Notes: generated by a model not told the origin, from the letters alone. Positions 4,819 to 60,509 are shown, counted from the stretch's first letter. The stretch: DNA of 64,000 bases from Chloroflexota bacterium (GCA_012729455.1 JAAYDC010000006.1:27782-91781); one strand, 5' to 3'. Numbers and translations are program-made.

Positions 4819-5601
4819 ATGGCTTACTCCCCTGAACCGACGGCGACGATCGACCAGCTGCGCGTCTACCGCTGTGAGTCACCTGCCGAGCTGGGTGCTC
4901 TGGCGGCTGATATGCTCACGGATGCCATCCAGAGCGTTGTGGCTGAGCGCGGCAGCTGCAACCTGATCATGGCTACGGGCAACTCCCAGCTGCCCCTCTA
5001 TACGGTGCTGCGCGAGCGCGACCTGCCCTGGGGAGCGGTGCGCGTGCTGCATATGGACGAATACCTTGGACTGGACGAGCACCATTCGGCCTCCTTCCAG
5101 GGCTATATGCGCCGCGAACTGGCCGACCGCGTACCGCTCAAGGCGTTCTATGGCATCCGCGGCGATGTAGCTGATCCAGCTGCTGAGATCGCGCGCTACA
5201 GCGAGCTCCTGCGTACCTATCCGGCGGATGTGTGTGTGCTGGGCATCGGCGAGAACGGTCACCTGGCCTTTAACGACCCGCCGGCCGATTTCACGACGGA
5301 TGCTCTGGTGCACATTGTCACCCTCGACCAGGTCTGCCGCCAGCAGCAGGTGGGCGAAGGCCATTTTGCCAGCCTGGATGCCGTGCCCAAGCAGGCCCTC
5401 ACCCTGACCGTGCCGGCCCTCCTGAGCGCGCGTATGGTGCTGGCGATTGTTCCAGAGGCGCGCAAAGCCGAGATCGTGCGCCGTACGCTGACGGAGCCGA
5501 TCAGCCCGGCGTGTCCGGCCACTATCCTGCGGCGCCAGGCACATGCCCATCTGTTTCTGGATGCCGCCTCAGCCAGCCGCTCGGACGACCTGTTGAACTG
5601 A
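4819..5601 (+). CDS. nagB: glucosamine-6-phosphate deaminase/isomerase family protein (NagB-like)
   Basis: The product contains the GIGENGHLAFNDPPADF motif of the NagB/6-PGL fold. An AAGGAG RBS is present. Confidence 0.7.
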   Translation: MAYSPEPTATIDQLRVYRCESPAELGALAADMLTDAIQSVVAERGSCNLIMATGNSQLPLYTVLRERDLPWGAVRVLHMDEYLGLDEHHSASFQGYMRRELADRVPLKAFYGIRGDVADPAAEIARYSELLRTYPADVCVLGIGENGHLAFNDPPADFTTDALVHIVTLDQVCRQQQVGEGHFASLDAVPKQALTLTVPALLSARMVLAIVPEARKAEIVRRTLTEPISPACPATILRRQAHAHLFLDAASASRSDDLLN

Positions 5602-5616
5602 GCGCAGCGCGGGCAG

Positions 5617-5645
5617 TTGGTTAAATCGCCCAGGCGATGTATAGT
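5617..5645 (+). promoter_or_regulatory. sigma70-like promoter for glnS (TTGGTT-17-TATAGT), spacer contains inverted repeat ATCGCCcaGGCGAT
   Basis: The -35 element is at 5617–5622 and the -10 element at 5640–5645, with a 17-nt spacer. An AGGAGG RBS and the ATG at 5677 follow. Confidence 0.45.
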
Positions 5646-5676
5646 TTGCGGTACTGCAACGCTCAGGAGGGATGTG

Positions 5677-7383
5677 ATGGCTGACGAATCGACCACCATG
5701 CCGGCTGCCGAAGAGGCGGCGCCGCTCGACTTTATCCGTACGATCGTCAACCAGGACGTCCAGCAGGGGATTAACGACGGGCGCGTGCACACGCGCTTCC
5801 CGCCCGAACCCAACGGTTACCTGCATATCGGCCACTCCAAGGCCATCACGCTCGATTTCGGGATCGCCGCCGAATATGGCGGCCTGTGCAACCTGCGCTT
5901 TGACGACACAAACCCAACCAAGGAAGAGGTCGAATACGTCGATAGTATCCAGGAGGATATCCGCTGGCTGGGCTTTGACTGGGACGATCGGCTCTATTAT
6001 GCCTCCAGCTATTTCGGCCGTTTGTACGAGTGCGCCGAGCAGCTCATCCAACTGGGCAAAGCATTTGTGTGCGACCTGAGCCCCGACGAGATGCGCGAGT
6101 ATCGCGGCACCCTCACCGAGCCGGGGCACAACAGCCCCTGGCGCGAGCGCAGCATCGCCGAAAACCTGGATCTCTTTCGCCGCATGAAAGCCGGCGAGTT
6201 TCCCGAAGGCAACCGCGTGCTGCGCGCCAAGATCGACATGGCCAGCCCCAATATGGTAATGCGCGACCCGGTTATCTATCGCATCCTCTACACACCGCAT
6301 CACCGCACAGGCACCGAGTGGTGCATCTACCCGATGTACGACTTTGCGCACTGCCTGTCGGACGCGCTGGAGGGCATCACACACTCGTTCTGCACGCTCG
6401 AGTTTGAAAATAACCGTCCTCTCTATGACTGGTTCCTGGAAGCCCTGTCGGTGCCGCATCGTCCACAGCAGATCGAGTTTGCGCGCCTGAACCTCACGCA
6501 TGTGGTGATGAGCAAACGCCTGCTGCGCCGCCTGGTCGAAGATGGCACGGTGAGCGGCTGGGACGACCCGCGCATGCCCACGTTAGCCGGCATGCGCCGT
6601 TTGGGTTATACCCCCGAGTCGATCCGCGACTTTAACGCCCGCATCGGCGTGGCCAAAGCCAACAGCATGGTGGATTTCTCGCTTCTGGAATACTGCGTGC
6701 GCACCGACCTGAACAAGATCGCCCCGCGGGTGATGGGCGTGCTGCGCCCGCTCAAGGTGATCATCGATAACTATCCCGAGGACCAGGTCGAGGAGCTGCA
6801 GGCGATCAACAACCCCGAAGACCCTTCCGCCGGCACGCGCGCGGTGCCCTTTAGCCGCGAGCTGTACATCGAACAGGACGACTTTCGTATTGACCCCCCG
6901 CCCAAGTATTTCAGGCTGGCGCCTGGCCGCGAGGTGCGGCTGCGCTATGCCTACTTTATTACCTGCAACAGCTATGAGACGGACCCCGCCACCGGCGAGG
7001 TGACTGTGCTGCACTGTACCTATGACCCAGCCACGCGCGGCGGCGATTCTCCCGATGGCCGCAAGGTCAAGGCCACCCTGCACTGGGTCTCGGAACGCCA
7101 CGCTATAGGAGCTGAAGTAAGGTTGTTCGACCGGCTCTTTAGCGTAGCCGACCCGACCGCTGATGCCAGCCAAAGCCTGTCGGAGCAGCTCAACCCCAGC
7201 TCACTCGAGGTGGTGCAGGCCCAGGTCGAGCCCAGCCTCGGCGATGCGCCGGTTGGGGCTCATTACCAGCTCGAGCGCCAGGGCTATTTCACCGTCGATC
7301 GCGATTCGCGCCCCGGCCAGTTGGTGCTCAACCGCACCGTAGCGCTGCGCGATACGTGGGCCAAGATCGAACAAAAAGGTTAA
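5677..7383 (+). CDS. glnS: glutaminyl-tRNA synthetase
   Basis: The product contains the class I HIGH-type motif [14 protein letters not shown] and a VMSKR KMSKS-like loop. An in-frame ATG-TGA lies just upstream, so I place the start at 5677. Confidence 0.85.
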
Positions 7384-7416: not shown

Positions 7417-8703
7417 ATGTCTAGTTATTCGCCCGAAGTCACCGCCTATCTGGCGCGCTATGAACGGCGCAACCTGATCGCCAACTTTCTGGACCTCACG
7501 TTCTTTAGTCTGGCGATGTCGTTCATCTTTGCCTCGACTGTGCTGACGGTCTATATTAGCCGGCTGACGAGTGTGGCCGTGCTGATCGGCTTGGTGACCT
7601 CGATCCAGGGGGTATCGTCGAGCCTGCCGCAGCTCTTTTTCGCCAACAAGGCTGAGCACCTCTCGCGCTACCTGCCCTTTATCCTGCCGATCAGCACACT
7701 GGAGCGCCTCCCCTATGGGGTGATTGGCCTGATGCTGCTGTTGTGGCCGCAGGTACCCAACTGGCTGGCCTATACGGTGCTGATCCTCGGTTTGGCGATT
7801 GCCGCGCTGGCGGGCGGCATCTGCGCGCCGGCCTGGCGCGGGATGATCGCCAAGGTGGTGCACCGCGAACAGCGCGGGATGCTCTTTGGCGTCAGTGCGG
7901 GAGTCGGCGGGTTGCTCGGTGTAGCTGGAGCAGCAGTCTCGCGCCAGATCTTGGCCAACTACCCTTACCCGACCTCGTACGGCATCTGTTTTATGCTATG
8001 CTTTGTGTTTCAGATCTGCTCTTATATCGGGCTGAGCCTGAACCGCGAACCAGCTACGCCGCCGACGGTGGAAAGCCGTTCTGCGCGCGATTATTGGTCG
8101 AGGCTACCCTCGGTGCTACGCGGCAACCGCAATTTTCGGTGCTATCTGACAATCCGTGTGTTGCTGGTTTTGGCGGGCATGGCGGGTGTCTTTACCATGG
8201 TATATGCGCGCCAGCGCTTTGAAGTGAGTGATTCGTTTGCAGCCGACCTGACAATGGTTGCCTTGATCAGCCAGACCATCGCCGCACCGCTCCTGGGGCG
8301 CGTAGCGGACCGGCTCGGTTACAAGTGGCTGCTCCAGCTCGGCACCCTGACGTCCATGTTCGCCATGGTGATCCTGATAGCTGCGCCCGCCCCCGAATGG
8401 TTCTATTTGCTCTACCTGGTGACTAACGCGGGTGGAGCCGGCATGGGTATCGCTGCATCCAACCTGCCTATGGAGTTCTCGGCCACCGAGCTGCCGACCT
8501 ATACCGCCCTCTCGGACACTCTGCTGACTCTGCCGATCCTGCTATCGCCGCTGATCGGGGGCTGGCTGGTGGATACCGTCGGCATGCGCCCCACCTTTGT
8601 GCTCAGCCTGGTGCTGTATGCAGTCGTATATGTGATGCTGCGCTGGTTTATGATCGACCCGCGCCACAACACCCCCACCCCCGAGCCCGAAAGCGCTGTC
8701 TAG
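7417..8703 (+). CDS. MFS transporter
   Basis: The 428-aa protein has about 12 predicted TM segments with the typical 6+6 hydrophobic pattern. Confidence 0.75.
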   Translation: MSSYSPEVTAYLARYERRNLIANFLDLTFFSLAMSFIFASTVLTVYISRLTSVAVLIGLVTSIQGVSSSLPQLFFANKAEHLSRYLPFILPISTLERLPYGVIGLMLLLWPQVPNWLAYTVLILGLAIAALAGGICAPAWRGMIAKVVHREQRGMLFGVSAGVGGLLGVAGAAVSRQILANYPYPTSYGICFMLCFVFQICSYIGLSLNREPATPPTVESRSARDYWSRLPSVLRGNRNFRCYLTIRVLLVLAGMAGVFTMVYARQRFEVSDSFAADLTMVALISQTIAAPLLGRVADRLGYKWLLQLGTLTSMFAMVILIAAPAPEWFYLLYLVTNAGGAGMGIAASNLPMEFSATELPTYTALSDTLLTLPILLSPLIGGWLVDTVGMRPTFVLSLVLYAVVYVMLRWFMIDPRHNTPTPEPESAV

Positions 8704-9458
8704 GCGCTGAGCGAGCTGCGCAATTCCGCCGCCAGCTCCTGAAAGCGCAGCGAATGCTGCTGTTCAATGTGCCGCGGACGCGGCAGATCAATACGCACTT
8801 CGTTCTTGAGCACCCCTGGACGAGCGCTCATCGTCAGCACGCGGTCCGAAAGCAGCACGGCTTCCTGGATATTGTGGGTCACCATCACCACCGATTTGTG
8901 CTGGCGCTGCACTAGTTTGAGCAGCTCTGCATCCATGCGTTCGCGCGTGAGGGCGTCCAGCGCCGCAAAGGGCTCGTCCAGCAGCAGGATCGACGGATCG
9001 TTGACCATGGCGCGCGCCACAGCGACGCGCTGGCTCATCCCGCCCGAAAGCTCAGCCGGGTAGGCGTGCGCAAAGTCATCCAGCCCAACCAAATGCAGTT
9101 GCGCGCGGGCACGTTCCTGTGCCTCCCTGCGCGGTACGCCGGCTACTTCGAGCGGCAGCATAATGTTGGCCAGTACTGTGCGCCAGGGCATCAGGGCGGG
9201 GCGCTGGAAGACAAAACCGATCTCGCGCTGCGGAGCTGTAATGACAGAGCCGCGCAGGATAACACGGCCGCCAGTGGGCTGTAACAGCCCCCCCAGGATG
9301 CGCAGCAGGGTCGATTTACCGCACCCTGACGGCCCGATGATGCAAATGATCTCCTGCGGATACAGGCACATATCGGCACGCGCCAGCGCCTCAAAGGGAG
9401 CTGACTCTTCCGGAAAGGTCATCTGCACCTGTTGGGCGCACAAGAGTGGTTCGCTCAT
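8700..9458 (-). CDS. ABC transporter ATP-binding protein, NitT/TauT (SsuB-like) family
   Basis: The product has a Walker A motif (GPSGCGKST), the LSGGMSQR signature and an LLLDEP Walker B motif. Confidence 0.85.
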   Translation of the reverse strand: MSEPLLCAQQVQMTFPEESAPFEALARADMCLYPQEIICIIGPSGCGKSTLLRILGGLLQPTGGRVILRGSVITAPQREIGFVFQRPALMPWRTVLANIMLPLEVAGVPRREAQERARAQLHLVGLDDFAHAYPAELSGGMSQRVAVARAMVNDPSILLLDEPFAALDALTRERMDAELLKLVQRQHKSVVMVTHNIQEAVLLSDRVLTMSARPGVLKNEVRIDLPRPRHIEQQHSLRFQELAAELRSSLSA

Positions 9459-10458: not shown

Positions 10459-11259
10459 TCAGGCGCCCGGTTGGCGCCAGCGTACAAAATAGCGCTCCAG
10501 CAGGCTGACAACGCCATAGAGCGACAGCGCCAGGCTCATCAGGATAAAGAGGGCTACAAACATCAGCGGGGTATCAAAAAGTCCGCGCGCCAGGTTGACG
10601 AGAAAGCCCAGCCCGCGGTCGGAGCCAACAAACTCGCCCACCACCGCGCCGATCACCGATAGGGTGACACCGATCTTTAATCCTCCAAAGAGCACCGGCA
10701 GCGAAGCCGGCAGCTCCAGCAGACGAAAGGTAGTCCAACGGTCGGCACGCAGGGCGCTCATCAGCTCGCGCAGGTCGCGCTCAACCCCGCGGATGCCGAC
10801 GATGGTGTTGATCAGCACCGGGAAAAAGAGTGTCAATGCGCACACCAGGATCTTGGAGAGGCTGCCAGCCCCGAACCAGATCACCAGGAGCGGAGCCAGC
10901 GCCACAATCGGGATGGCTTGTGTGGCAACCAGAAAGGGTGCCAACAGGCGCTCGAGGCGCGCCGATTTAGCCAGCAAATACCCCAAACTAAAGGCGAAAC
11001 TGAGCCCCAGCAGCAAGCCTCCCAGGATCTCGTAAAGCGTCACCGCCAGATGGCGCCAGAGCAGTCCTTCGGCGGCAGCGCGCACAAAGCGCTGCCACAC
11101 CTGGCTGGGCGAGGGCAGCAAAAAGACGGGATAGTTGCGCGCCAGCACCAGCAGCTCCCAGGCACCCAGCACCAGCGCGATGATCGTCAGCAGCGCAGCC
11201 AGTTCGAGCCAACGTTCATAGTTGGCACGGTTAGGTTGCTGCGCATCTTTGTTTGGCAT
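10459..11259 (-). CDS. ABC transporter permease, NitT/TauT family
   Basis: The product is a BPD_transp_1-type permease with 6 TM segments. An ATG at 11259 with a GAGGGG RBS is a better start than the upstream GTG at 11313. Confidence 0.75.
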   Translation of the reverse strand: MPNKDAQQPNRANYERWLELAALLTIIALVLGAWELLVLARNYPVFLLPSPSQVWQRFVRAAAEGLLWRHLAVTLYEILGGLLLGLSFAFSLGYLLAKSARLERLLAPFLVATQAIPIVALAPLLVIWFGAGSLSKILVCALTLFFPVLINTIVGIRGVERDLRELMSALRADRWTTFRLLELPASLPVLFGGLKIGVTLSVIGAVVGEFVGSDRGLGFLVNLARGLFDTPLMFVALFILMSLALSLYGVVSLLERYFVRWRQPGA

Positions 11260-11488
11260 AAAAAACACCCCTCGAGCATCAGCCGCGGGGTGCCGAACGA
11301 GACGGCCGTTCACCTTCTTTCATCCGGACTGTACCGTCGGCTCCGGATTCGCACCGGATCTGCCAAAGCTGGCTTGCGGGCTGGCACTGGAAGGTGCATC
11401 ACCGCCGGTAGGGAGTTGGTACTAACCTCACCCTGCCCCGAAGGCTGTCAGAACGTGACTATTATAAAACCAGGCAGGGGTGTGTCAA
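11260..11488 (-). promoter_or_regulatory. consensus sigma70 promoter (TTGACA-16-TATAAT) plus a ~190-nt structured 5' leader of the ABC operon
   Basis: On the minus strand the sequence reads catTTGACAcacccctgcctggtttTATAATagtc. The leader contains mutually exclusive pairings (atccgg / ccggat). A stem-U6 hairpin (cacccc…ggggtgTTTTTT) lies directly before the AUG. Confidence 0.5.
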
Positions 11489-48977: not shown

Positions 48978-50042
48978 ATGACGCACTATGACGGCGGAGC
49001 TCACCAGCGGCCAGATCGGCCGCCGCACACCGCCTGGGTGTTTGGGATCCTGCTGGCGGCAGCTCTTCTGGCAGCCGGCCAGTTGATCGCCCTGGCGCGC
49101 TCGACCGGTCGATCCGATATAGCCATGCTGGCCGCCACTGGCACCTTTACCTGGCCGACCACGACACCGACGCGATTACCCACGTCCACCGCGACGTCCA
49201 CGGCGACACCCAGTCCGACGGCGCTGCCTCCGGTGGTGCAACTACCCAGCCGTGGGGTAACTGCCATGCCGTTGCCAACTTTGGCGCGTGACGCCTCACC
49301 GGTGATGCCGCGCGAGGGTACGCCCATCGCGACGCGTACCCCACTTCCACCCCTCCCGCCGGTTGAGTCGCAAGAGCCCTACCCTGCCCCCGACGTGGGC
49401 AATGTGCCGGCCGCCACCTTTACGCCGCGGCCGCCTTTGCAGCCATCTGGTTCGGGAGAGCCCTATCCACCGCCGGCATCCGGCGTTACCCACACAGCGG
49501 TGCCGGGGGTGCCGAACAGCACGCCCAGCTCGTCGGCTGAGGTGATCGAGCGCGTGACGGTGAATAACGGCGAATGGGGCGAGCGTGAGATCATTGTGCG
49601 CTATGACGAAACCGCCACCAGCGACGTGATGTATTTCCGTGCCGCCGACGGGGCACAGTACCGCGTGGTATTTGGATTCATCAATACCCCCGAGGCCCTG
49701 GCTGCTGTGCGGACCGCCTGGGCGGAGGCCAAGCGCGGCTCTGCAAACTGGGGCATGGTAATCACGGTGCGCAAGAGCGTCTCGGACTGGTACCAGTGCA
49801 CCGAGAGCATGCCGGTGTGCTATACCTCGCGCATCGATAGCGGCCAGGCGGTCGTATTTGTTGATGTTTATCTGCGTAACGCGGCCTGGCAGTCGCTCCT
49901 GAACGACTATTTGGCCATTGGATTACCAAAACTGATAGAAAACGCCAACTATCCCAAACTGCAGGAAGCTGTGTTTGAGCCGATGGTCGGCTCAGTGCCG
50001 GCTACCAGATGCATCGGGGTGACCTTTACGCGGGTGAACTGA
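48978..50042 (+). CDS. membrane-anchored hypothetical protein with Pro/Thr-rich linker and C-terminal globular domain
   Basis: An AGGAG RBS is present. One TM helix (WVFGILLAAALLAAGQLIAL) is followed by a (T/P/S)-rich stretch of about 150 aa and then a domain of about 170 aa. Confidence 0.5.
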   Translation: MTHYDGGAHQRPDRPPHTAWVFGILLAAALLAAGQLIALARSTGRSDIAMLAATGTFTWPTTTPTRLPTSTATSTATPSPTALPPVVQLPSRGVTAMPLPTLARDASPVMPREGTPIATRTPLPPLPPVESQEPYPAPDVGNVPAATFTPRPPLQPSGSGEPYPPPASGVTHTAVPGVPNSTPSSSAEVIERVTVNNGEWGEREIIVRYDETATSDVMYFRAADGAQYRVVFGFINTPEALAAVRTAWAEAKRGSANWGMVITVRKSVSDWYQCTESMPVCYTSRIDSGQAVVFVDVYLRNAAWQSLLNDYLAIGLPKLIENANYPKLQEAVFEPMVGSVPATRCIGVTFTRVN

Positions 50043-50043
50043 T

Positions 50044-50083
50044 TAAAAAAAGGCCGCTCCCCTGGTCATAATCAGGGGAGCGG
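50044..50083 (-). terminator. bidirectional intrinsic terminator (11-bp stem ccgctcccctg / caggggagcgg), T7 on minus strand
   Basis: The hairpin lies downstream of the B12-rSAM gene on the minus strand and of the hypothetical gene on the plus strand. Confidence 0.7.
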
Positions 50084-50106: not shown

Positions 50107-51600
50107 TCAGGCGGCAAAGCTAGAGCCGAGCACATTCTCGCAGATGCGGCGGAAGTGAAAGCCATAGATAGCATAGGTGATCGCCTGAGCAAAAAGCCTG
50201 GGGCGATGTGTCAGGGTCCACCATACCAGTTTCCAGAATTCCTTGCGTTCTTTGCCCATACCGATCAAAAACACGGCTTTGAAAAAGGCTTTGATATAAG
50301 CCCAACTGAGCGGGAACTTGCTGGTCACGCGCTGCCGGTACTCGCTCAGGAAGGTGTGTACACGCTGGTAATAAGCCTTGGGGGCATAGATGGTCGCCAG
50401 GATACGCTCATAGCCCTTGTGCAGTACCTTGGGATCCATTTTAGGAATAAAGTTAATCGTGGCGTCGACGTTATCGCCCGACGGGTTCATCAAGAGACGT
50501 CCTTCGGATTTCAGGCGCTTGTAGAGCTCGGTGCCGTTGATGGCCTGCAGCAGACCCACCATGGCCGTCACAATCCCCGAACGCTGGATAAAGTCGATCT
50601 GGCGCTGGAAAATCGTCTCGTCGTCGCTATCAAAGCCGACGATAAAACCGCCATCGACCTCAAACCCGTTGCGCTGCAGGGTCTTGACGGATGCGAGCAG
50701 GTCGCGCTCGAGGTTTTGCGCCTTCTGGCACTCGTTCAGGCTATCAGCGTCGGGGGTCTCGATGCCCACAAACACCGAGTTAAAGCCCGCTTCGCTCATC
50801 ATGTCCATCAGTTCCTGGTCATCTACCAGGTTGATGCTCACTTCTGTTTTAAAGGCAACTTCGGGGTGATCTTTGCGCCACTCGATCAGTGCTGGCAGGA
50901 CCTCGTTTTTAAGCTGGCGTTTATTGCCAATAAAGTTATCGTCGACAAAAAAGGCGCCTTTGGTCCAGCCGGCATCGTACAGCGCATCGAGCTCCACAAT
51001 CACCTGGGCAGCCGTCTTGGTGCGCGGACGGTGCCCGAGCATCGAGGTGATGTTGCAGAAATCGCAGGCAAAGGGGCAGCCGCGTGAATATTGCAGGCAC
51101 ATGTCGGAGTATTTATCGAGCTTGGCCAGGTGCCAGAGCGGTACCGGCGTCTTGGTGACATCGGCGAATTCCTTTGTCTCGTAGAGCGGTTTAGGATTCC
51201 CGGCTTTTAGATCCGCCAAAAAGAGCGGCAGGGTGATCTCGCCCTCGTTGAGCACAAAATGGTCAACTTCGGGGAAATCCTGATGCTCGCCTAGAAAAAG
51301 CGGCCCACCCGCCACGACCTTTTTGCCTGCCTGCTTGCAGCGATGGATCAGGGCGCGTACTGAATCGCGCTGCACCACCATGGCGCTTACAAAGCAATAG
51401 TCGGACCATTGCAGGTCGCTCTCGGAGAGCTCTTCGACGTTCAAATCGACCAGGCGCTTTTCCCAGGATTCCGGCAGCAACGCCGCTATAGTCAGCAAGC
51501 CAAGCGGTGGCAAGCTGGCCTTTTTACTGATAAAAGGCAAGGCGTAACGAAAGCTCCAAAAAGTATCCGGATTCTCTGGGTACAGCAGCAAAGCACGCAT
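50107..51600 (-). CDS. B12-binding-domain radical SAM protein with C-terminal DUF4070-like region (class B rSAM)
   Basis: The product has an N-terminal B12-binding domain and the CxxxCxxC motif QYSRGCPFACDFCNIT. It is 497 aa. It is the last gene of the GRE operon. Confidence 0.75.
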   Translation of the reverse strand: MRALLLYPENPDTFWSFRYALPFISKKASLPPLGLLTIAALLPESWEKRLVDLNVEELSESDLQWSDYCFVSAMVVQRDSVRALIHRCKQAGKKVVAGGPLFLGEHQDFPEVDHFVLNEGEITLPLFLADLKAGNPKPLYETKEFADVTKTPVPLWHLAKLDKYSDMCLQYSRGCPFACDFCNITSMLGHRPRTKTAAQVIVELDALYDAGWTKGAFFVDDNFIGNKRQLKNEVLPALIEWRKDHPEVAFKTEVSINLVDDQELMDMMSEAGFNSVFVGIETPDADSLNECQKAQNLERDLLASVKTLQRNGFEVDGGFIVGFDSDDETIFQRQIDFIQRSGIVTAMVGLLQAINGTELYKRLKSEGRLLMNPSGDNVDATINFIPKMDPKVLHKGYERILATIYAPKAYYQRVHTFLSEYRQRVTSKFPLSWAYIKAFFKAVFLIGMGKERKEFWKLVWWTLTHRPRLFAQAITYAIYGFHFRRICENVLGSSFAA

Positions 51601-51699
51601 TTCACAAACTCCCATTTCACTTAAACGAGCTATCTATAAGACACCGAATCCCCCAGGCAGGTTACGCCTGAGGGATTCGAATTGCAGAAATGGGAGTTT
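51601..51699 (-). promoter_or_regulatory. structured intercistronic RNA element that sequesters the rSAM RBS in a perfect 13-bp long-range helix around a nested hairpin
   Basis: On the mRNA, AAACUCCCAUUUC lies directly after the pfk UAA stop. It is complementary to GAAAUGGGAGUUU, which contains the GGGAG Shine–Dalgarno 7 nt upstream of the rSAM AUG. A nested hairpin (cgaatccc-c-caggc-aggttac-gcctg-a-gggattcg, 51645–51679) lies between the two segments. Confidence 0.5.
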
Positions 51700-52986
51700 T
51701 TACTTGCGGTAATCCTGCGGGGTATACACCTCGAGCACCTGACGCACCTGCTGAGCGCCGAGTTCGGCGAAACGCAGCCGGCCATGCTCCAGGATGACCT
51801 CGGGCCAGCCATCACCCAGTAACGGCTGGGCGTAGCGGATAAAGTCATCCGTCACGTCACAATGGTCGCGGTCGATCCATTCCTTTGGAAAGGTGCGTTC
51901 AGAGTTGGCCATCTCGCCCAGCGGCACGCTGGTATAGCGCACCGTATAGGGCGCATCGGATGTGCGCACCAGGCTGGCCATCTTGCCGGATATGTGTTGC
52001 GCAGCCAACCCCGCGGCCTGCTGCCCGACGGCACGCGCCTCCGCCAGGTCGACGGTCGAGGCATACACGATATCGTGGCGCTGCTGCGTGCCAGGGATAT
52101 TGGCGCGCGCCGAGCCGCGCGCTGCCAGCCCTGCCTGGTTGAGATAGTTGACCAGCAGCTGTGCAGCGGTGCTGGCACTCGACGAGAACTGGGTATGCCC
52201 AAAGGCATCCTGACGTTCTCCCAGTGAGCCCAGATCAAGCCCTTCGCTCAGCACCACTATGGCGCGCCCAGCGCGCCGCAGGGTGTCATTGATCAGGTCG
52301 GCGAGCTCGGGCAGCGTATAGCTGCTTTCGGGCAGCAGCAGCAACATCGGTAACTCGCGCTGCGGATCTGCGAGCCGAGCCGCCGCCGGGATAAAGCCAA
52401 TCCGGCGTCCCATGGCTTGCAGCACCAGCACCGGGTCGGCTGGGAACGAACCGCGGTTTTCCTGATCGGCCTGCTGCACCGTCAGCGCCCAGTAGCGCGC
52501 ACAGCTGCCGTAACCGGGCGAGTGATCCAGCAGTTGGAACGCCTGGTCGCCCAGGTCGTTATCGATCGTCTTGGGTACACCCACTGCCACCAGGTCGGGC
52601 CCGCGCTGGTGCGCCAGGTCGGCAATCTTGTTGGCGGTGTCCATCGAGTCGTTACCGCCGATGTAAAACAGATAGCCCACTTCATGGGCTTGCAGCACGG
52701 CAATGACGCGCTCGAAATCCTGCTGGTTGGCCGAGCGTAACTTGTAGCGGCAGGTGCCGATCACCCCGGCAGCCGGCGTGGCTGAAAGCAATTCCACCTC
52801 GCGCGCTAGGGCAGCGCTGAGATCAAGCAGTTCTTCGCGCAGAAGACCCTCGACGCCGTTGGCTGCGGCATATAGCTTGCCAAAGGCGCGGCTGGCACGG
52901 CAACCCTCGATGATGCCGCGCAACGAGGCGTTGATCACCGGCGAGGGCCCGCCCGATTGCGCTACCAGCACATTACGCGCCGCCAT
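51700..52986 (-). CDS. pfk: 6-phosphofructokinase-family sugar-phosphate kinase; PPi-type signature (Asp104/Lys124 equivalents) but GGNDS instead of GGDGS/GGDDS
   Basis: The product contains the motifs [16 protein letters not shown] and [11 protein letters not shown] place the start at [20 protein letters not shown], with an AAGGGGG RBS. The start overlaps the gnd stop. Confidence 0.7.
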
Positions 52987-54406
52987 CGTGGCTGCCCCCT
53001 TGCAGACCCACCCAATCGGTGTGGAAGGATCCCTCACGGTCGGTGCGGCGGTAGGTGTGCGCGCCAAAGTAATCGCGCTGCGCCTGGGTCATGTTGGCAG
53101 GCAGGCGCTCGCTGCGATAGGCATCGTAATAAGCCAGCGCCGAGCTGAGCGCCAGACAGGGAATACCCAGCCGCACCGCCACCGTGACTACCTCACGCAG
53201 GGCCGGCACGCGCTCGATCATCGCCTGGCGGAAGAAGGGATCCAGCATCAGGTTGGTGAGCTTGGGGTCGCACTTATAGGCCGCGGTAATGTCGTTGAGG
53301 AAACGCGCCCGGATGATGCAGCCGCCACGCCAGATGGCGGCGATGCGCCCATAGTCCAGGTTATAACCAAACTCATCCGAGGCTGCGTGCAGCAGGCTCA
53401 TGCCCTGCGCGTACGAGCAGATCTTGGCCGCGTACAGCGCCGCGCGCACCTGGCTGATCAACGTCTGACGGTCGCCCTCATAGGCAGCTTGCGGACCCGG
53501 CAGCACCTTGCTGGCTGCCACGCGTTCGGCCTTGTATGCCGAGATAATGCGCGATTCGACGGCTGCGTTGATTGTAGGTGTGGGGGCGCCCAGATCCAGG
53601 GCGCTCTGCGAGGTCCACTTGCCAGTGCCTTTTTGCTGGGCTTCGTCGAGGATCACATCCACGAGCGGTACGCCCGTCTCGACATCCGATACAGCCAGGA
53701 TATCGGCGGTGATCTCGATCAGATACGACTGCAGCTCGGCCTGGTTCCACTCGCTGAAAATGCTGTGCAGTTCGGACGCCGAAAGGTTCAGGGCACGATG
53801 CAGGATATCGTACGATTCGGCGATCAGCTGCATATCGCCATACTCAATGCCGTTGTGCACCATTTTGACATAGTGCCCCGCTCCGCGTGGGCCGATGTAG
53901 GTGACACATGGTTCGCCATCCACCTTGGCGGCGATGGACTCAAAGATCTGCTGCACGAGCGGGTAGGCATCGGGCTGGCCGCCAGGCATGATAGCTGGCC
54001 CCCGCAGGGCACCCTCCTCACCGCCCGAGACGCCCGTGCCGATATAGCGCAAGCCGGCCTTTTCGAGCGCGGCGGCGCGCCGTTCGGTATCCTGGTAAAA
54101 CGAGTTGCCGCCGTCGATAATCAGGTCGCCGGGTTCGAGCACCGGCACGAGCTGGTCGATTACCGCATCAACCGGCGCTCCTGCCTTGACCATCAGCATC
54201 ACCCGGCGCGGGCGCTCCAGGGCAGCCGCCAGCTCTTCAAGGGTAGCGCAGCCAGTCAGCTTTTTGCCGGGATGCTCAGCAATAAAATCTTCCGTTACGC
54301 TGGTGGTACGGTTGTATACCGCCACGTGGTAACCGTTGCGCTCCATGTTCAAGACCAGGTTCTGGCCCATTACAGCCAGGCCGATCAAACCGATTTGGCT
54401 TGCCAT
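52973..54406 (-). CDS. gnd: 6-phosphogluconate dehydrogenase (decarboxylating)
   Basis: The 477-aa product has [15 protein letters not shown] and IDGGNS motifs. A TAGGAGG RBS is present. Confidence 0.85.
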
Positions 54407-54415
54407 AAGTACCTC

Positions 54416-55669
54416 CTAGGAGCCCTTGAGTTTATAAAGCAGTTCGCCGGCGCGAGGTACCACCAGGATACCCTCGTCTTCTTTGCCGGCCAGATCAGCT
54501 GGGTTAAAGCTATTGGGGTCGAGATAACCCAGGTTAATACGCTCACAACGTTCTCGCGGGATGCCCGTCGCCAGCACCACGTTCACGCGCGGATGCTCGA
54601 CGCCATCCGTATAAGTGCCGTCACCCTTTACGTGGCAGGCATGTGCCAGAACCGCCTGCGGCTCGTTGGCCACCTTATCCCAGTTGCTAAGGAAGTAGTC
54701 GCGCACATGGTAGCCCACATGATCGAGCACCTTGCCATGCACGTAGGATACTTCGGTAATATGTGGTGCATAGATCACCACGGTGCCGCCATCCGCCACC
54801 GCCGGCTCGACCTTGTACATGCCCTTGGAGCCGGTCCACAGGTCGTCGTACAGTTTCGGCATCACCGAGATCACCTTGTTAAAGGGTTTATCAACCCACA
54901 CCACGTTCCACAGCGCCGAAAGCTCGGCGGCCTTGGCTTGTGATTCTTCGGGCGTGCCGTAAAAGACGCCCGCAAGGTCATGATGACCTTTGACCACCAG
55001 GCTAAAGCAGCGCCGCTCGGTGGGGATCATGGTGGCAGCCTGATCAAGCATACGGCGCACCGCCGTATGCTGGTTGCCGATTATGGCGTGGCAGGTGATC
55101 AGCGCGGAGAGCCAGTGGGTCTGGTCGATCATGTTGCCGCCACTGATGCCCGGGAAAAAGTACTTGTTGCCGCCCGAAAAGCCGACCACCTCGTGCGGGA
55201 AAACCGGCCCCAGCACGATCAGATAGTCGTAATCCCTGACGCGGGCATTGATCTGCACGTTGATAGGCTCATGCATACGTCCGTCGGAGATCTCGGCCAC
55301 CTGCTCGGCACGGATGGTGCCGATATCCATCAGGCCGTGCTGCCAGTCGTGGTTGTAGATGCCCACTTCGGCATAACGGCCGGCACGCTCTTCGGAGCTA
55401 AAGCCAAAATGGCGCTCCAGCACCTCGCCCGTCATGGGGATGTGCGTGCCTGTGGCGATCAGAAAATCCAGCTTGGACGCCACTCCCAAGAGCTCATCGG
55501 TGATGATGCGAAAACAGAGCGGCAGCGGCAGACTGCGCGTGCCATCCGGCACGATAAAGAGCACCCGCTTGCCCTTTAATGGTGTGGCGGCAAAAGCCTC
55601 GCTAAAGACCTGCCGCACCTCATCATCCGTCAGAAACCGAGCGGTGCAACCTTTGCCAATCACCATCAT
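54416..55669 (-). CDS. LarA-family protein (Ni-dependent 2-hydroxyacid racemase/epimerase homolog, DUF2088), paralog 2
   Basis: The product contains the patterns RVLFIVPDGTRSLP and ATGTHIPMTGE. Its start overlaps the upstream stop in a TAATG arrangement. Confidence 0.65.
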   Translation of the reverse strand: MMVIGKGCTARFLTDDEVRQVFSEAFAATPLKGKRVLFIVPDGTRSLPLPLCFRIITDELLGVASKLDFLIATGTHIPMTGEVLERHFGFSSEERAGRYAEVGIYNHDWQHGLMDIGTIRAEQVAEISDGRMHEPINVQINARVRDYDYLIVLGPVFPHEVVGFSGGNKYFFPGISGGNMIDQTHWLSALITCHAIIGNQHTAVRRMLDQAATMIPTERRCFSLVVKGHHDLAGVFYGTPEESQAKAAELSALWNVVWVDKPFNKVISVMPKLYDDLWTGSKGMYKVEPAVADGGTVVIYAPHITEVSYVHGKVLDHVGYHVRDYFLSNWDKVANEPQAVLAHACHVKGDGTYTDGVEHPRVNVVLATGIPRERCERINLGYLDPNSFNPADLAGKEDEGILVVPRAGELLYKLKGS

Positions 55670-56568
55670 TACCCTGCCTTTCTCCATGGAGGAACCTCGG
55701 GCAAAAGACGTTCAAACTCGCTGACCAACTCGGCCTCATAGCTGCCGGCATAATCGAGTGCCAGAAAGCGCGGCAAACCCTCCTGGTAAAAGCGCTCCCA
55801 CGACTGTTCTTCATGGCCGGGGTTGATGGGAAAAAAGAGGGCCTGGTTATCGCGCGCGGCTTTCAGGTCGCCGGGCGCATCGCCGATCATCAATACATGC
55901 TCGGGTGCGTAACGGCCCTGCGAGCTCAGGCGGATATGTTCAGACTTGGTGCCCATCTCCTGGCCGGCGATCACCCGAACCAGGCCATCCAGGCTGTGTT
56001 CCTGCCATTCGCGGCGCAGCGCCTCGAGAGGCGTCTGCGACACCACAACAATATCGGCGCGCTCGTGCAGGGTGCTGAGTGATTCGCGCACCAGCGGGAA
56101 GGGCGGCACTCCGTGCACCATATCGGCGATGGTGGCGTTGACAGCCTTGCTCCAGGCCAAGGCGCGTTCCAGCTCGATACTGGGGTGCTCGCGAAGATAG
56201 CTGGCCAGAAAGTCGTTGCTGAGCCCACCCCCCTCGGCGATAAAGGCCCTGACATCGGTAAGCGGATGCACCACCGCGTTGCGCGCCTGCACCTCGGGGC
56301 GCTCGCGCAAGAGGTCAAGCACCTTGACCAGCGCCGGCCAGCGATTTACGCCGCGCCACTTGCTGTAGAGGTTGACGAACTCGGCCGCCTCGCGCGCGTA
56401 CTTTGATACGGACTGCAACTCCCAATAGTTGATGATGTTGGGAATAAAGCATTCCTTGTGCTTGATCTCCATAGTATCAAACACGCAGCCATCCGAGTCA
56501 ATCCCCACGAAAAAGGGGTGTTCAGCCTGCAACTCAGTCAGATGGGCAGAAAACTGTGTCAAGCTCAT
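55669..56568 (-). CDS. HAD-superfamily hydrolase (probable phosphatase)
   Basis: The product has HAD motif I (FFVGIDSDGCVFDT) and the C-terminal MIGDAPGDLKAA motif. Confidence 0.6.
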   Translation of the reverse strand: MSLTQFSAHLTELQAEHPFFVGIDSDGCVFDTMEIKHKECFIPNIINYWELQSVSKYAREAAEFVNLYSKWRGVNRWPALVKVLDLLRERPEVQARNAVVHPLTDVRAFIAEGGGLSNDFLASYLREHPSIELERALAWSKAVNATIADMVHGVPPFPLVRESLSTLHERADIVVVSQTPLEALRREWQEHSLDGLVRVIAGQEMGTKSEHIRLSSQGRYAPEHVLMIGDAPGDLKAARDNQALFFPINPGHEEQSWERFYQEGLPRFLALDYAGSYEAELVSEFERLLPEVPPWRKAG

Positions 56569-56583
56569 GCATGCCCCCTTGTG

Positions 56584-57417
56584 CTATACACCGCTGAACG
56601 CCGCAAAGCCGCCATCCACTACTGTGGTAGTGCCGTGCACAAAGGCGGATCCGGGCGCAAGCAGCCAGAATATGGTGCTGAGCAGCTCCTGCGGATCGCC
56701 CAGACGGTGCATGGGGGTATGCCCGACCACCGACTGCCCGCGCGCTGTAAGCTCGCCAGTGCCTTCGACGGTCATCAGGTAGCGGTTCTGCTCGGTAAGA
56801 TAAAAACCGGGGGCAATGGCGTTAACGCGGATGCGCGGCGAATAGTTATGCGAGATGTGCACCGCCAGCCATTCGGTAAAGTTGCGCACGGCTGCCTTGG
56901 CAGCTGAATAAGCCGGGATGTTGGTGAGGGGTTTGATGGCGTTAATCGAGGCGATGTTGATAATCGAGCCCTCGCCGCGTTCGGCCATATGCTTGCCAAA
57001 AACCTGACAGCAAATCAAGGCCGTTTTAAAGTTGAGATCAAAGACGCTCATAAAGGTGTCGAGCGGCAGATCGAAAAAGGGCAGCTCCGCGCTGGTAGTG
57101 GCTTCTTTGCGGTTGCCGCCGGCACCGTTAATCAGCGCATCGACGCAGCCATAAGCCTCAAGGGCGCGCGCAAGGGCTGCCTCGACATTGGCTTTATCCA
57201 GACAGTTGACCTCGAGTGCCATGGCCTGGCCGCCTGCCTGGGTAATGCGATCGACGACTGCCTGCGCCTTGGCTGGGTTATAGTCCATCACCAGGATACG
57301 TGCGCCTGCTCTGGCAAGCGCGTCAGCCATGGCACCGCACAGGATGCCTCCTCCGCCGGTGATGGCAATCACTTTGTCTTGTACTGAAAACAACTCGGCC
57401 AGATAGTCATTTGACAT
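56584..57417 (-). CDS. SDR-family oxidoreductase (gluconate 5-dehydrogenase/KduD-like)
   Basis: The product has the TGGGGILCGAMA Rossmann motif and the YSAAKAAV catalytic motif. An AGGAG RBS is present. Confidence 0.8.
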   Translation of the reverse strand: MSNDYLAELFSVQDKVIAITGGGGILCGAMADALARAGARILVMDYNPAKAQAVVDRITQAGGQAMALEVNCLDKANVEAALARALEAYGCVDALINGAGGNRKEATTSAELPFFDLPLDTFMSVFDLNFKTALICCQVFGKHMAERGEGSIINIASINAIKPLTNIPAYSAAKAAVRNFTEWLAVHISHNYSPRIRVNAIAPGFYLTEQNRYLMTVEGTGELTARGQSVVGHTPMHRLGDPQELLSTIFWLLAPGSAFVHGTTTVVDGGFAAFSGV

Positions 57418-57427
57418 GCGAGTACTC

Positions 57428-59590
57428 CTAAAGCGATTCGTGTTCGGTGCGAAGGATAATTTCTTCCTGCATGCGCGGCGAGAGCCCGACGAAATAGTCG
57501 CTGTAGCCGCCGATGCGCACCACCAAGTCGCGATATTGTTCGGGGTGCGATTGGGCAGCCAAAAGGACCTCTTTATCGACCACATTGACCTGGATCTCAA
57601 AACCGCCGCGCTGGATAAAGGTATCCACCAGGTTGCACAGACTTTGCGCAAAAGTGTCGCGCTGGCCAGTGCGAGCGAATTTGAGGTTCACGGCGATGCC
57701 GCCCAACATGGGGGTGTGGTCCCATTTGGTCGACGAGAGCACCGCTGCAGTCGGCCCCAGCCGTTCACGCCCCTGAGCAGGGCCCGAGCCGTCGCCCAGG
57801 GCTTGGGCGGCCAAGCGGCCATCGGCTGAGGCAGCCGTCACCTCGCCAAGGCGTTCGTGCATAATCCAGCAAAACAGCCCGGGATGGTAGTCGTCCCCCA
57901 AAAAGGTGCGGTAGCGTGCGCACTCGGCCCTAATGCGCTCGGTCACGCGCACCGCCAGCTGGTCGACCGAATCGTCGTCGTTGCCGTACTTGGGTACCTG
58001 GTTGAGGAACATCAGCCGCAGGTCTTCGCGTCCGGCATAGTTGCTGGCCAGCACCTCGGCCAGTTCGCTCAGGCTGATGCGCGGCTCGTCGTAGACAAAC
58101 TTGCGGATCACAGCCAGGGTATCCACCAGGTTGGCGAGCCCCACAAAGGAGGGCTCGATCCAATTGTGGCGGGCGCCGCCGCGGTCGATATCCAATCCGC
58201 GTGCCAAGCAGTCATTGACAAAGCACGAGAGCAGCGGCCATCCGCCATGATAATAACGCGTCATCTGGTTGGTGTTTTCACCGATCACGCCATGCAGCAG
58301 GAGCTCGGAGAGCTGCGCCTCGTAGGCTGCCAGCAGGCTCTCGAAATCCGGGTAGTCGGCCGGCTGGCTGGTAAGCCCCTGGGTTTGCGCTGCCCCAGCT
58401 CCGCGCGCCAGCGGGGCAATGCCCAACAGGTCGTGCAGGGGCTCCAGAAGGTTTATGTAGGGGCTTGCAACATAGACATTGGAGGAGGCAACCGGCGTCA
58501 TCTCGACGCAGGTGCTGTGCTGGTAAAGGCAGGCTTCGGCGGGCGGCAAACCGGCCTCGAGCATCCCCTGTGTGATGACCTCATCGTTAAAGATGGCCGG
58601 GTGGCTGAGCCCCTCGGACAAGAGCTCGCTGGCCAGCTGTTTAATATCCTCAGGCATCTCGGGCGTCCAGCACAGGCCGATGCCCGGATATGCCAGACGC
58701 GTATGGCGGATGGAACGCAAAAAGAGGCGCGTCAGATCGTTGCAGATATCCTTACCGCTGCCATCGCGCCCGCCCACCATGAAACCCACCGCCAGGCTGC
58801 GCGGTGTATAGACGTTAAAGAGCATGCACAGGCAGTCGATCAGTTCCTGCGCGCCGGCCTCGTCGATGGTGCCGTTCTTCAAATCACGCTCGTAATAGGG
58901 GAGCAGGTAACGGTCGGGGCGCCCCAGCTGGAAGAGCAGCATCATCTGGCTGGCGCACAGCGCAAAGGTCACCAGATGGATGGCCTGCATCGCCTCGTAA
59001 AAGCTGGTCGCCGGGTGCTCTGGCACGCGCCGGCAAATGTTGGCGATCTCGTATAGCTCCATGGCGCGCCTGGAATCGGCACGCGCTGCCAACTCTTCGG
59101 CATGCACCGCATAACGCTCCGAAAACGTCGAGAGGCCGTCCAGGGCGATCAAACAGGCGCGGTAAAAGGCATCCTTTTCGAGCTCGGAGGGCACCGTCAG
59201 GTTGAGGCGGCTGCGGAAGACGGCGATGCGTTCGCGGATGCCTACTAACCCGTGGCGCAGCAAGAGCTCATAGTCGATCGCCATATGCGCCCTTTGCCCC
59301 AGGACGGGCGAGGCAGCGCGGGAGGCATCTTTTTGCCAATGGGTCAACTCTTCTTGTTCGGCATCCGTGAGCTTGCGGCTGGGGAACTTGCCCACCAGGA
59401 GCTCGTCGTCGCCAATCTCGGGCGTCAGGCCGGTTAGCACCGCGGCGGTCGCCTGAGCACGCCGCACCAGCGGCCAGGGCTCGCGCGTGGTCGCAAGCCA
59501 CGAGCGTCCCCACAACAGCTCTGGCTCGCTGCTGTGGACCGAGCCCTGTTCCAGAAATGCGGCGCGTAACCGCTCGATGCGTTCCGTCAT
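57428..59590 (-). CDS. glycyl radical enzyme, PFL2/eliminase clade (C-x-E active-site loop), substrate unknown
   Basis: The C-terminal glycine-radical loop is VRIGGYSDYFVGL. The Cys loop is STCVEMTP, which has the Cys-x-Glu arrangement seen in GDH, CutC, HypD and PD rather than the Cys-Cys of PFL. The product is 720 aa. A GAGAGGAG RBS is present. Confidence 0.8.
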   Translation of the reverse strand: MTERIERLRAAFLEQGSVHSSEPELLWGRSWLATTREPWPLVRRAQATAAVLTGLTPEIGDDELLVGKFPSRKLTDAEQEELTHWQKDASRAASPVLGQRAHMAIDYELLLRHGLVGIRERIAVFRSRLNLTVPSELEKDAFYRACLIALDGLSTFSERYAVHAEELAARADSRRAMELYEIANICRRVPEHPATSFYEAMQAIHLVTFALCASQMMLLFQLGRPDRYLLPYYERDLKNGTIDEAGAQELIDCLCMLFNVYTPRSLAVGFMVGGRDGSGKDICNDLTRLFLRSIRHTRLAYPGIGLCWTPEMPEDIKQLASELLSEGLSHPAIFNDEVITQGMLEAGLPPAEACLYQHSTCVEMTPVASSNVYVASPYINLLEPLHDLLGIAPLARGAGAAQTQGLTSQPADYPDFESLLAAYEAQLSELLLHGVIGENTNQMTRYYHGGWPLLSCFVNDCLARGLDIDRGGARHNWIEPSFVGLANLVDTLAVIRKFVYDEPRISLSELAEVLASNYAGREDLRLMFLNQVPKYGNDDDSVDQLAVRVTERIRAECARYRTFLGDDYHPGLFCWIMHERLGEVTAASADGRLAAQALGDGSGPAQGRERLGPTAAVLSSTKWDHTPMLGGIAVNLKFARTGQRDTFAQSLCNLVDTFIQRGGFEIQVNVVDKEVLLAAQSHPEQYRDLVVRIGGYSDYFVGLSPRMQEEIILRTEHESL

Positions 59591-59606
59591 ATCCCCATAT
59601 CTCCTC

Positions 59607-60509
59607 TCAGCTGTGCTTGACCTGAATGCCCGCCTGAGCGGCAATCTCAGTCAGCTCATCCATCAGCTCTTTAGCGGGACGTTTGATCTCACGGGCACGG
59701 TAATCCATGCCCAGGCTATCGTACTTACCGGATGCCATCGGATGAAACGCTAGCAGCTCGTAATAAAGCAGGTTGGGCAACTCGGCCGCAAAGTGCGCAA
59801 TAGCGCTGATCTCCTCGGGAGTATCGTTAACGCCCGGCACCAGCGGGGTACGGATGATCAGTGGTTTGCCCTGCGCAGCCAGGGAGCGCAGGTTCGCCAG
59901 GATGCGCTCGTTCGAGACACCAGTGCATTCGCGGTGGCGGGCGTCGTCCATCAGTTTGACGTCCGCCATCACGAGGTCGGTGACGTCTAAAATCGCCTCG
60001 ACGCGGGCCCATGGGAAATGCAGCGCCGTCTCGATGGCAGTATGCAGACCCTGTTCGCGGCTCAATCGCAGGATCTCGTGAGCAAAGTCGAACTGCAGCA
60101 GGGGTTCGCCGCCCGAAAGAGTGATGCCGCCCTGTGAAGTCTCGTAAAAGGGCTTGTCGCGCAGCACCTCGTCAACGACTTCCTGAGCCGTCTTGACCTC
60201 GCCGGCGATGACCAGCGCTTCAGCATAACAAGTCTCAGCACAGCGCCCGCAGGCCTCGCAGCGCTCGCGATGATAGGCGCGCCCGTCGAGCAACTGCTCG
60301 TGAGCTGCGTTCGGGCAGCGCTCAAAGCAGGCGCCGCAGCCGATGCAGCGGTTCGGGAAAATCTGCAGCTGGCGTTTGGGTTCGAGCGTCTCGGGATTGT
60401 GGCACCAAAAGCAACGCAGGTTGCAGCCCTTGAAAAAGACGGTCGTGCGGATGCCCGGGCCATCGTGAATTGAAAAACGCTGAATATTGGTAACGATGCC
60501 GTTGACCAC
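59607..60509 (-). CDS. glycyl-radical enzyme activating protein (radical SAM, with inserted 2x[4Fe-4S] ferredoxin-like domain)
   Basis: The rSAM cluster lies in GCNLRCFWCHNPE and additional CxxCxxC(x)nCP clusters follow. The start codon is GTG. Confidence 0.85.
   Translation of the reverse strand: MVNGIVTNIQRFSIHDGPGIRTTVFFKGCNLRCFWCHNPETLEPKRQLQIFPNRCIGCGACFERCPNAAHEQLLDGRAYHRERCEACGRCAETCYAEALVIAGEVKTAQEVVDEVLRDKPFYETSQGGITLSGGEPLLQFDFAHEILRLSREQGLHTAIETALHFPWARVEAILDVTDLVMADVKLMDDARHRECTGVSNERILANLRSLAAQGKPLIIRTPLVPGVNDTPEEISAIAHFAAELPNLLYYELLAFHPMASGKYDSLGMDYRAREIKRPAKELMDELTEIAAQAGIQVKHS

Follow-up and report, generated by a model that had tools for sequence, protein, structure and literature searches.

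What controls the expression of a B12-binding radical-SAM gene whose Shine-Dalgarno sequence (SD) can be folded into an RNA helix that reaches back to the stop codon of the preceding gene? The question is raised by a short spacer within a stretch of 64,000 nucleotides of DNA, called the window throughout, whose source is an uncultured Chloroflexi/Anaerolineae-type MAG. A first-pass annotation had read the spacer as a candidate riboregulator, thermosensor or riboswitch-like element. Three features of the spacer have to be accounted for: (i) a perfect helix over the SD, (ii) a strong hairpin nested inside that helix, (iii) a two-box sequence motif shared with relatives.

The pfk-rSAM junction

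The two genes that flank the spacer, and the terminator that follows the second of them, lie on the minus strand:

51700..52986, minus strand: PFK-family gene (pfk; Pfam PF00365, E = 5e-37), with its stop codon TAA at 51702-51700
50107..51600, minus strand: B12-binding/Radical_SAM/DUF4070 gene (rSAM) of 497 aa (Pfam PF02310, PF04055 and PF13282), with its start codon AUG at 51600-51598
50054..50083, minus strand: canonical intrinsic terminator of rSAM, an 11-bp GC-rich stem followed by UUUUUUU

The pfk gene is the final gene of an upstream GRE-SDR-HAD-LarA_N-6PGD-PFK cluster, and its coordinates are matched by a gene call of 428 aa on identical public contigs. The rSAM protein has an identical counterpart in a Chloroflexi MAG, and the start at AUG 51600 is the same in gene calls on public contigs with the identical protein. 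The gene content of the upstream cluster (54416-59644, minus strand) reads glycyl-radical enzyme (PFL-like), SDR, HAD, LarA_N-like protein, 6-phosphogluconate dehydrogenase and PFK. In the related locus L172 (4-2238) the rSAM homologue, there transcribed divergently, also sits beside a glycyl-radical enzyme, which suggests that this B12-rSAM subfamily is functionally linked to a glycyl-radical enzyme/sugar-phosphate pathway.

The spacer between pfk and rSAM is 99 nt long. Read along the mRNA, the order is the stop codon UAA, AAACUCCCAUUUC, UGCAAUU, a hairpin (51680-51644), UGUCUUAUAGAUAGCUCGUUUAAGU, GAAAUGGGAGUUU, GUGAA and the start codon AUG. Its GC content is 0.42-0.45 against 0.61 for the whole 64-kb window, in agreement with the local drop noticed at first pass. 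The rSAM gene itself (50107-51600) has ∼54% GC compared with ∼65% in the neighbouring genes (flanks 49000-49800 and 51950-53500); the pfk-rSAM order is nonetheless kept in relatives at 72-76% identity. The low GC content of rSAM may reflect either a compositional constraint or an old transfer.

A 13-bp helix over the Shine-Dalgarno sequence

The helix is formed by two arms at the ends of the spacer:

51687..51699, minus strand: 5' arm (anti-SD), AAACUCCCAUUUC, running from the first nucleotide after the pfk stop onward
51606..51618, minus strand: 3' arm, GAAAUGGGAGUUU, holding the Shine-Dalgarno sequence GGGAG at 51613-51609

In an inverted-repeat search the arms are 13 nt each and 100% complementary, with 68 nt between them. 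The first-pass annotation had described a perfect 13-bp helix that sequesters the rSAM SD from a 5' segment right after the pfk stop, and this description is borne out, except that the distance between the segments had been given as 57 nt. It had also correctly located the GGGAG ribosome-binding site (RBS) in the 3' complement; the spacing of 7 nt to the AUG has to be corrected, as the GGGAG ends 8 nt ahead of the rSAM AUG. This SD occupies the position homologous to the (G/U)AGGAG of the orthologues.

The leader as a whole folds into the architecture that had been proposed for it, with a free energy of -52 kcal/mol (z = -6.9) that none of 200 shuffled sequences equals. The cost of opening the RBS in the full spacer is about 17.1 kcal/mol, compared with 8.5±2.8 kcal/mol when the 5' part is shuffled, and the value of about 17 is the highest among the 37 SD-led genes of the window (mean 8.1, sd 3.8). 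For a leader that begins at the transcription start predicted below, the opening cost is 7.4 kcal/mol, an ordinary value. The helix is thus real, and on these folding models it would hide the SD wherever both arms are present on one RNA.

The SD-bearing arm overlaps a 15-nt tandem direct repeat, GUGAAAUGGGAGUUU / GUGAAAUGCGUGCUU, with 80% identity (51593-51622, minus strand). The 3' arm accordingly resembles a diverged duplicate of the start-codon segment, which yields an in-frame AUG at 51615 that has no SD. This second AUG, within the 3' arm, is not the rSAM start, because every homologue begins with MR[IAV]LL.

How readily such a helix arises by chance depends on how the question is put. 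Perfect 13-bp inverted repeats as such are not rare on the scale of 64 kb: at least one, with the arms within 120 nt, was present in 16/100 shuffles of the window, and the window itself has three. The other two lie at 1485-1497/1553-1565 and at 28115-28127/28132-28144, the latter with a 4-nt loop. The complementarity of these particular segments, one adjacent to the stop codon and the other centred on the SD, was reached by 1/500 shuffles of the 5' segment.

Comparative analysis of the helix

Syntenic pfk-rSAM orthologues with 71-76% protein identity were available for comparison (L083/L084, L085, L086, L167, L168, L169 and L170). The 13-mers of the helix occur in none of them, so that no syntenic orthologue found has the inverted repeat, against what conservation of the proposed element would lead one to expect. 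The complementarity between the 5' and 3' segments of the orthologous spacers is no different from that of shuffled sequences (fraction at least as good, 0.16-0.80), and the RBS opening cost of the full orthologous spacers is not above the level of the shuffled controls. L085 forms a marginal exception, with 13.5 versus 9.6±2.0 kcal/mol; 2/30 shuffles were as high. Outer helices that had been spotted by eye in L083, L085, L167 and L168 were no better than chance when duplexfold energies were compared with those of shuffles, and were discarded.

The only other copies of the spacer, in L001 and L002, carry no information on variation in the helix, because these contigs match the window at 99.92% and 100% identity along 4.6-8.5 kb. 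L001 stops aligning to the window (below 49102) inside an aconitase-like gene, at 8500-8909 of the contig, after 8.5 kb at 99.92%; the cause is a structural variant or else a break in the assembly. The protein database searched has no relative between 76% and 100% identity. In searches of metagenome and genome contigs with the rSAM alignment, the relatives among the matches listed have at most 68% identity and none of them has pfk upstream; these loci provided a negative background for the motif described below. Judged from these sequences, the helix is a lineage-specific addition, found in this one lineage only.

Sensor and repeat readings

A buried SD invites the reading that the leader is a riboswitch-like element or an RNA thermometer, toggling rSAM translation in response to a ligand or to temperature. 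The long-range helix and the structured insert between its arms are what such a device would look like, and B12 and SAM, which the rSAM product uses, are each a known ligand of riboswitches. The insert is, however, accounted for by the hairpin and the two-box motif described below, and the helix is unique to one lineage. A search of Rfam 15 with positions 51300-52000 gave nothing at E<=10, and RNAalifold found 0 consensus pairs over 13 homologous leaders. There is no aptamer, because neither an Rfam match nor a consensus structure exists in the leader. The same Rfam search over the whole window did return an unrelated FMN riboswitch, and nothing else. That riboswitch (RF00050, 97.7 bits, full-length, 11308-11449, minus strand) lies directly upstream of an ORF at 10459-11313 on the same strand.

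RNA thermometers are short, imperfect helices of marginal stability. The rSAM helix is far too stable for this role: in the model the SD is >97% paired up to 85 °C, with a probability of being unpaired for GGGAG of <=0.005 at 65 °C and <=0.12 at 85 °C. The riboswitch and thermosensor readings that had been put forward for the rSAM leader are therefore rejected, and sensing of a ligand or of temperature in any form is a highly improbable explanation of the helix.

Even slimmer is the chance that the spacer is a mobile or repetitive element of the REP or MITE kind, that is, a 94-bp unit bounded by the 13-bp inverted repeats. Terminal inverted repeats, an internal palindrome and low GC content would all suit such an element. 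Yet the 13-mer (<=2 mismatches) and the hairpin (<=3 mismatches) each occur only once within the 64 kb, no copy of the element is found among the 82 related loci listed, and the sequence has no target-site duplication or flanking direct repeat. The interior, comprising the hairpin and the two-box motif, is moreover orthologous to the spacers of relatives that lack the terminal repeats. The possibility of a repeat family, which the first-pass annotation had named as a reason to abandon its proposal, is rejected as far as the 64 kb and these related loci go.

The nested hairpin

Between the arms of the helix lies a second, local structure:

51644..51680, minus strand: strong terminator-like hairpin of 14-16 bp with a loop of 5-7 nt and the tail UGUCUUAUAG

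The stem pairs 51645-51658 with 51666-51679 and can be extended to 16 pairs at 51680-51644, of which 9/16 are GC. A nested hairpin had been noted at first pass and is indeed present; the C·A mismatch ascribed to it exists on the plus strand only. On the mRNA strand the stem is uninterrupted, because the same position there is a U·G wobble. The hairpin loop carries the -35-like box of the motif described in the next section, and the 3' arm of the hairpin fills the spacer between the two boxes.

A strong hairpin around the -35-like box is found in four loci only, namely the window and its three closest syntenic relatives:

Window: -27.9 kcal/mol, z = -6.3
L083: -23.6 kcal/mol, z = -4.6
L085: -22.1 kcal/mol, z = -3.7
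L168: -14.9 kcal/mol, z = -2.2

Several stem positions have changed on both sides in a compensatory way among these four loci, as read from the alignment, for example from U-A to C-G and from C-G/A-U to U-A/G-C. The hairpin is absent from the other 11 motif-bearing loci. Syntenic loci that lack it have a separate stem and U-run right after pfk, as read from the sequences; the pattern scanner gave no confirmation of these, and since it proved unreliable on the orthologous spacers its negatives are not to be over-read. At ∼129-165 of L167, for instance, the scanner misses the obvious terminator GGCCGGC-AACCC-GCCGGCC-UUUUUU, probably on account of a stem that is extendable into A/U tracts.

In the window, the tail UGUCUUAUAG passes the lax scanner rule for terminators; it is U-poor and much weaker than the UUUUUUU of the rSAM terminator. 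The hairpin most likely serves to terminate or attenuate transcription coming from pfk, and its overlap with the promoter in this clade would be happenstance.

A conserved two-box motif

What the orthologous spacers share is not the helix but a pair of short sequence boxes. Their alignment has two invariant blocks, CGTAAC in the hairpin loop and, 15 nt further on and just 3' of the hairpin, GGTGTC(T)TATA. In the window the corresponding features are:

51661..51665, minus strand: -35-like box GTAAC, with AAC invariant across 16 homologous upstream regions
51635..51645, minus strand: -10-like box GGTGTCTTATA, with the invariant TGTC (51643-51640) 17 nt after AAC, followed by TwATA
51630..51634, minus strand: predicted transcription start zone of a monocistronic rSAM mRNA, placed from the motif position, ∼6-10 nt past TGTC

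The consensus is G[T/C]AAC(C)T - N13 - (G)GTGTC - T(T/A)AT(A/T). Both AAC and TGTC are invariant in the 16 upstream regions, with a spacing between them of N17 in 12 instances and N16 in 3. These regions belong to the window, L083/84, L085, L086 (two copies), L167, L168, L169, L170 (two copies), L004, L003, L087, L088, L172 and L173, all of which carry homologues of the rSAM subfamily at >=64% identity; more distant rSAM homologues are without the motif. It lies 63-80 nt upstream of the AUG, or 121-131 nt in two cases. A search with the motif profile gave no other site at E<1 in ∼1.1 Mb of related loci and the 64-kb window.

The genomic settings in which the motif occurs are varied. It closely follows a canonical terminator in L167, after pfk, and in L086, before the second of two tandem rSAM copies; it precedes both tandem copies in L170; it is found in the divergent spacers of L172 and L173; and it is present in the non-syntenic loci L004, L003, L087 and L088. 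The tandem rSAM paralogues, each with its own motif, are located at 5320-6813 and 7125-8507 in L086 and at 1239-2732 and 3001-4497 in L170. In L086 the entire upstream region of ∼110 nt has been duplicated after the canonical terminator.

The motif reads as a promoter and not as a structured RNA, because it consists of two short invariant boxes at a fixed spacing, separated by a freely varying spacer that has no covariation, and because it occurs after terminators and in divergent spacers. A scan of the spacer for sigma-70-type promoters gave no match, and a sigma-A reading was dropped since the invariant GTGTC and the distance of 21-22 nt from GTAAC to TATAnn do not fit it. A better fit is offered by the ECF promoters of the Bacillus subtilis sigma W/X/M/V type, which have the form tGAAAC/TGTAAC - N16-17 - CGTC/CGTA with an AACnTTTT tract (PMC5758882). 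An AACnTTTT tract is also present in L004, L087, L172, L173 and L003. From these sequence features, the motif is most likely a dedicated promoter for an alternative, ECF-class-like sigma factor.

The cognate sigma factor of an ECF promoter usually controls its own gene through the same motif, and that gene is often close by. No sigma-70 r2/r4 domains were found in the 20 window ORFs scanned, small ORFs included, and tblastn with RpoE found no sigma gene in the window or in the motif-bearing loci. This failure to find a neighbouring sigma gene is one argument for reading the boxes differently, as part of a transcribed cis-regulatory leader or as the operator of a transcription factor. The rather constant distance from the motif to the AUG (47-54 nt counted from GTC in most loci) and the conservation that continues 3' of the motif (AGTTT, GTTTGAA) point the same way, and the divergent spacers of L172 and L173 have room for a promoter further upstream. 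If this were so, the real promoter would lie further upstream or the operon promoter would be the only one used in the window; every rSAM mRNA of the window would then include the two arms, with the helix as the main gate to translation. Such a leader or operator is nevertheless improbable, as invariant short boxes held 16-17 nt apart, across a spacer that varies freely and has no covarying pairs, typify a promoter and not an RNA, as the motif closely follows canonical terminators in two loci, and as its features fit the ECF promoter class.

A proposed terminator/promoter junction with a helix on read-through RNA

Taking the boxes as a promoter changes the meaning of the helix. The predicted start falls between the two arms, ∼50 nt past the 5' arm and ∼12 nt ahead of the 3' arm. 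Since the 5' arm is upstream of the predicted start site, read-through RNA from pfk would then be the only RNA on which the helix could form. This leads to a composite model, in which the spacer is a terminator/promoter junction plus a read-through insulator or coupler, and which we regard as having about an even chance of being correct. The model has three layers: (i) a conserved layer, in which the motif promoter would produce a monocistronic rSAM mRNA running from about 51634-51630 to the terminator at 50083-50054, (ii) a clade layer, restricted to the four closest relatives, in which the GC-rich hairpin around the -35 box would terminate or attenuate transcription from pfk, (iii) a species layer, in which the 13-bp helix on read-through pfk-rSAM RNA would lock the rSAM SD. 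With the SD locked on read-through RNA, rSAM output would depend on the gene's own promoter. We infer the identity of the promoter, the start site, the activity of the terminator, the read-through RNA and the effect on translation from the arrangement of these elements. The suggestion made at first pass, that rSAM may be regulated independently of the rest of the operon, fits the model as far as independent expression is concerned, which is probable; the means would be the conserved promoter-like motif and not a riboregulator.

The position of the 5' arm also bears on the polycistronic mRNA. A ribosome terminating at the pfk stop would be expected to melt the helix, because the arm starts at the first base after the stop codon. 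Melting by the terminating ribosome would allow translational coupling of the 'RNA-unfolding' kind on the polycistronic mRNA. Occlusion was modelled with the general reach of a ribosome at a stop codon: when the stop codon and the following 6-12 nt are forced to be unpaired, the modelled opening cost of the RBS falls from 17.1 to 8.6-7.0 kcal/mol. The helix may be a selected dual-mode gate, with free translation of the mRNA that comes from the gene's own alternative-sigma promoter and translation of the read-through mRNA only during ribosome termination at the pfk stop; this reading as a whole is unlikely. Should the hairpin terminate efficiently, the helix would rarely form and may be irrelevant.

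It is also possible, though less likely than the composite model, that the helix is a neutral and recent by-product with no regulatory role, arising in a single step, for instance through a template-switch (quasi-palindrome) mutation near the hairpin, or through drift. The helix would have no role because transcription of rSAM begins past the 5' arm and transcripts from further upstream stop at the hairpin; the conserved promoter motif does predict a transcript that lacks the 5' arm. A recent origin is consistent with the absence of the helix from all orthologues, with arms as perfect as those of a young repeat (no wobble and no mismatch) and with the fact that all available copies come from one population, and the shuffles of the 64-kb window have already indicated that 13-bp perfect inverted repeats are not rare. 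Against a neutral origin stands the very specific placement of the repeat, with one arm starting right behind the stop codon (+1) and the other centred on the SD, together with a segment complementarity that only one shuffle in 500 could match. The arms are also 8 nt and 26 nt away from the hairpin, unlike the usual signature of quasi-palindrome correction.

Implications

On the sequence comparisons taken together, the evolutionarily kept control of rSAM is most likely the promoter, and the helix a lineage-specific extra. The more solid by-product of the analysis is accordingly a gene-specific promoter-like motif, GYAAC-N17-TGTC-TwATA, ahead of one B12-radical-SAM/DUF4070 subfamily in uncultured Anaerolineae. 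The motif offers a handle on the sigma factor or regulator, and hence on the physiological signal, for an enzyme of unknown function that is linked to the glycyl-radical enzyme and sugar-phosphate genes.

If the helix is functional, the spacer would be a compact natural arrangement, with the insulation of transcription and that of translation overlapping where the operon ends, and a clear test case for RNA-unfolding coupling at long spacing. A true dual-mode gate would mean coupling over a spacer of 99 nt with both a terminator and a promoter inside it, and would provide an unusually clean natural anti-SD, placed precisely at +1 of the upstream stop codon, from a phylum that has hardly been studied (Chloroflexi/Anaerolineae).

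Comparison with known systems

A long-range helix that sequesters an SD and an ECF-like promoter are both of known kinds, and the spacer is not a new kind of element. RNA thermometers such as ROSE and fourU likewise keep the SD base-paired in the 5' region; in the rSAM leader, by contrast, 13 perfect pairs close a stable multiloop. The expression platforms of riboswitches, of which the cobalamin and SAM classes are the obvious candidates, share with the rSAM leader an SD-sequestering helix, here ahead of a gene for a B12- and SAM-using protein, and differ from it in having an aptamer.

The likeness to promoters of the ECF-sigma class (PMC5758882) lies in the invariant AAC of the upstream box, the T-tract that follows it in several loci, the 16-17 nt spacer, the GTC of the downstream box and the confinement to a very small set of genes. 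The differences are the -10 box, which is TGTC plus TwATA instead of the CGTC/CGTA of the characterised Bacillus promoters, and the host, an uncultured Anaerolineae-type member of the Chloroflexi in which no cognate sigma/anti-sigma gene was found nearby.

Operon-junction insulators, in which an intrinsic terminator is laid over a downstream promoter, resemble the spacer in that a GC-rich hairpin right after the last gene of the operon overlaps the promoter-like boxes of the next gene. The hairpin of the window differs in its U-poor tail (UGUCUUAUAG), which makes its efficiency uncertain.

The closest parallel to the helix on read-through RNA would be the RNA-unfolding model of translational coupling, described for Escherichia coli rpmI-rplT, where the spacing is +52 nt, for the phage MS2 coat-lysis/replicase genes and for f1 genes VII-IX (reviewed in PMC12548453). 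In the rSAM leader the anti-SD lies just outside the upstream ORF, from +1 after the stop, and the loop holds a terminator-like hairpin and a probable internal promoter; the helix here is also without conservation, and the dependence on upstream translation is a predicted one. The principle is the same: the downstream RBS is paired with a segment that would be occupied by the ribosome of the upstream cistron. The spacing of +99 nt, compared with +52 nt in rpmI-rplT, is ample for the downstream RBS to be free during upstream termination, and modelled ribosome occupancy brings the opening cost of the rSAM RBS to the genome average.
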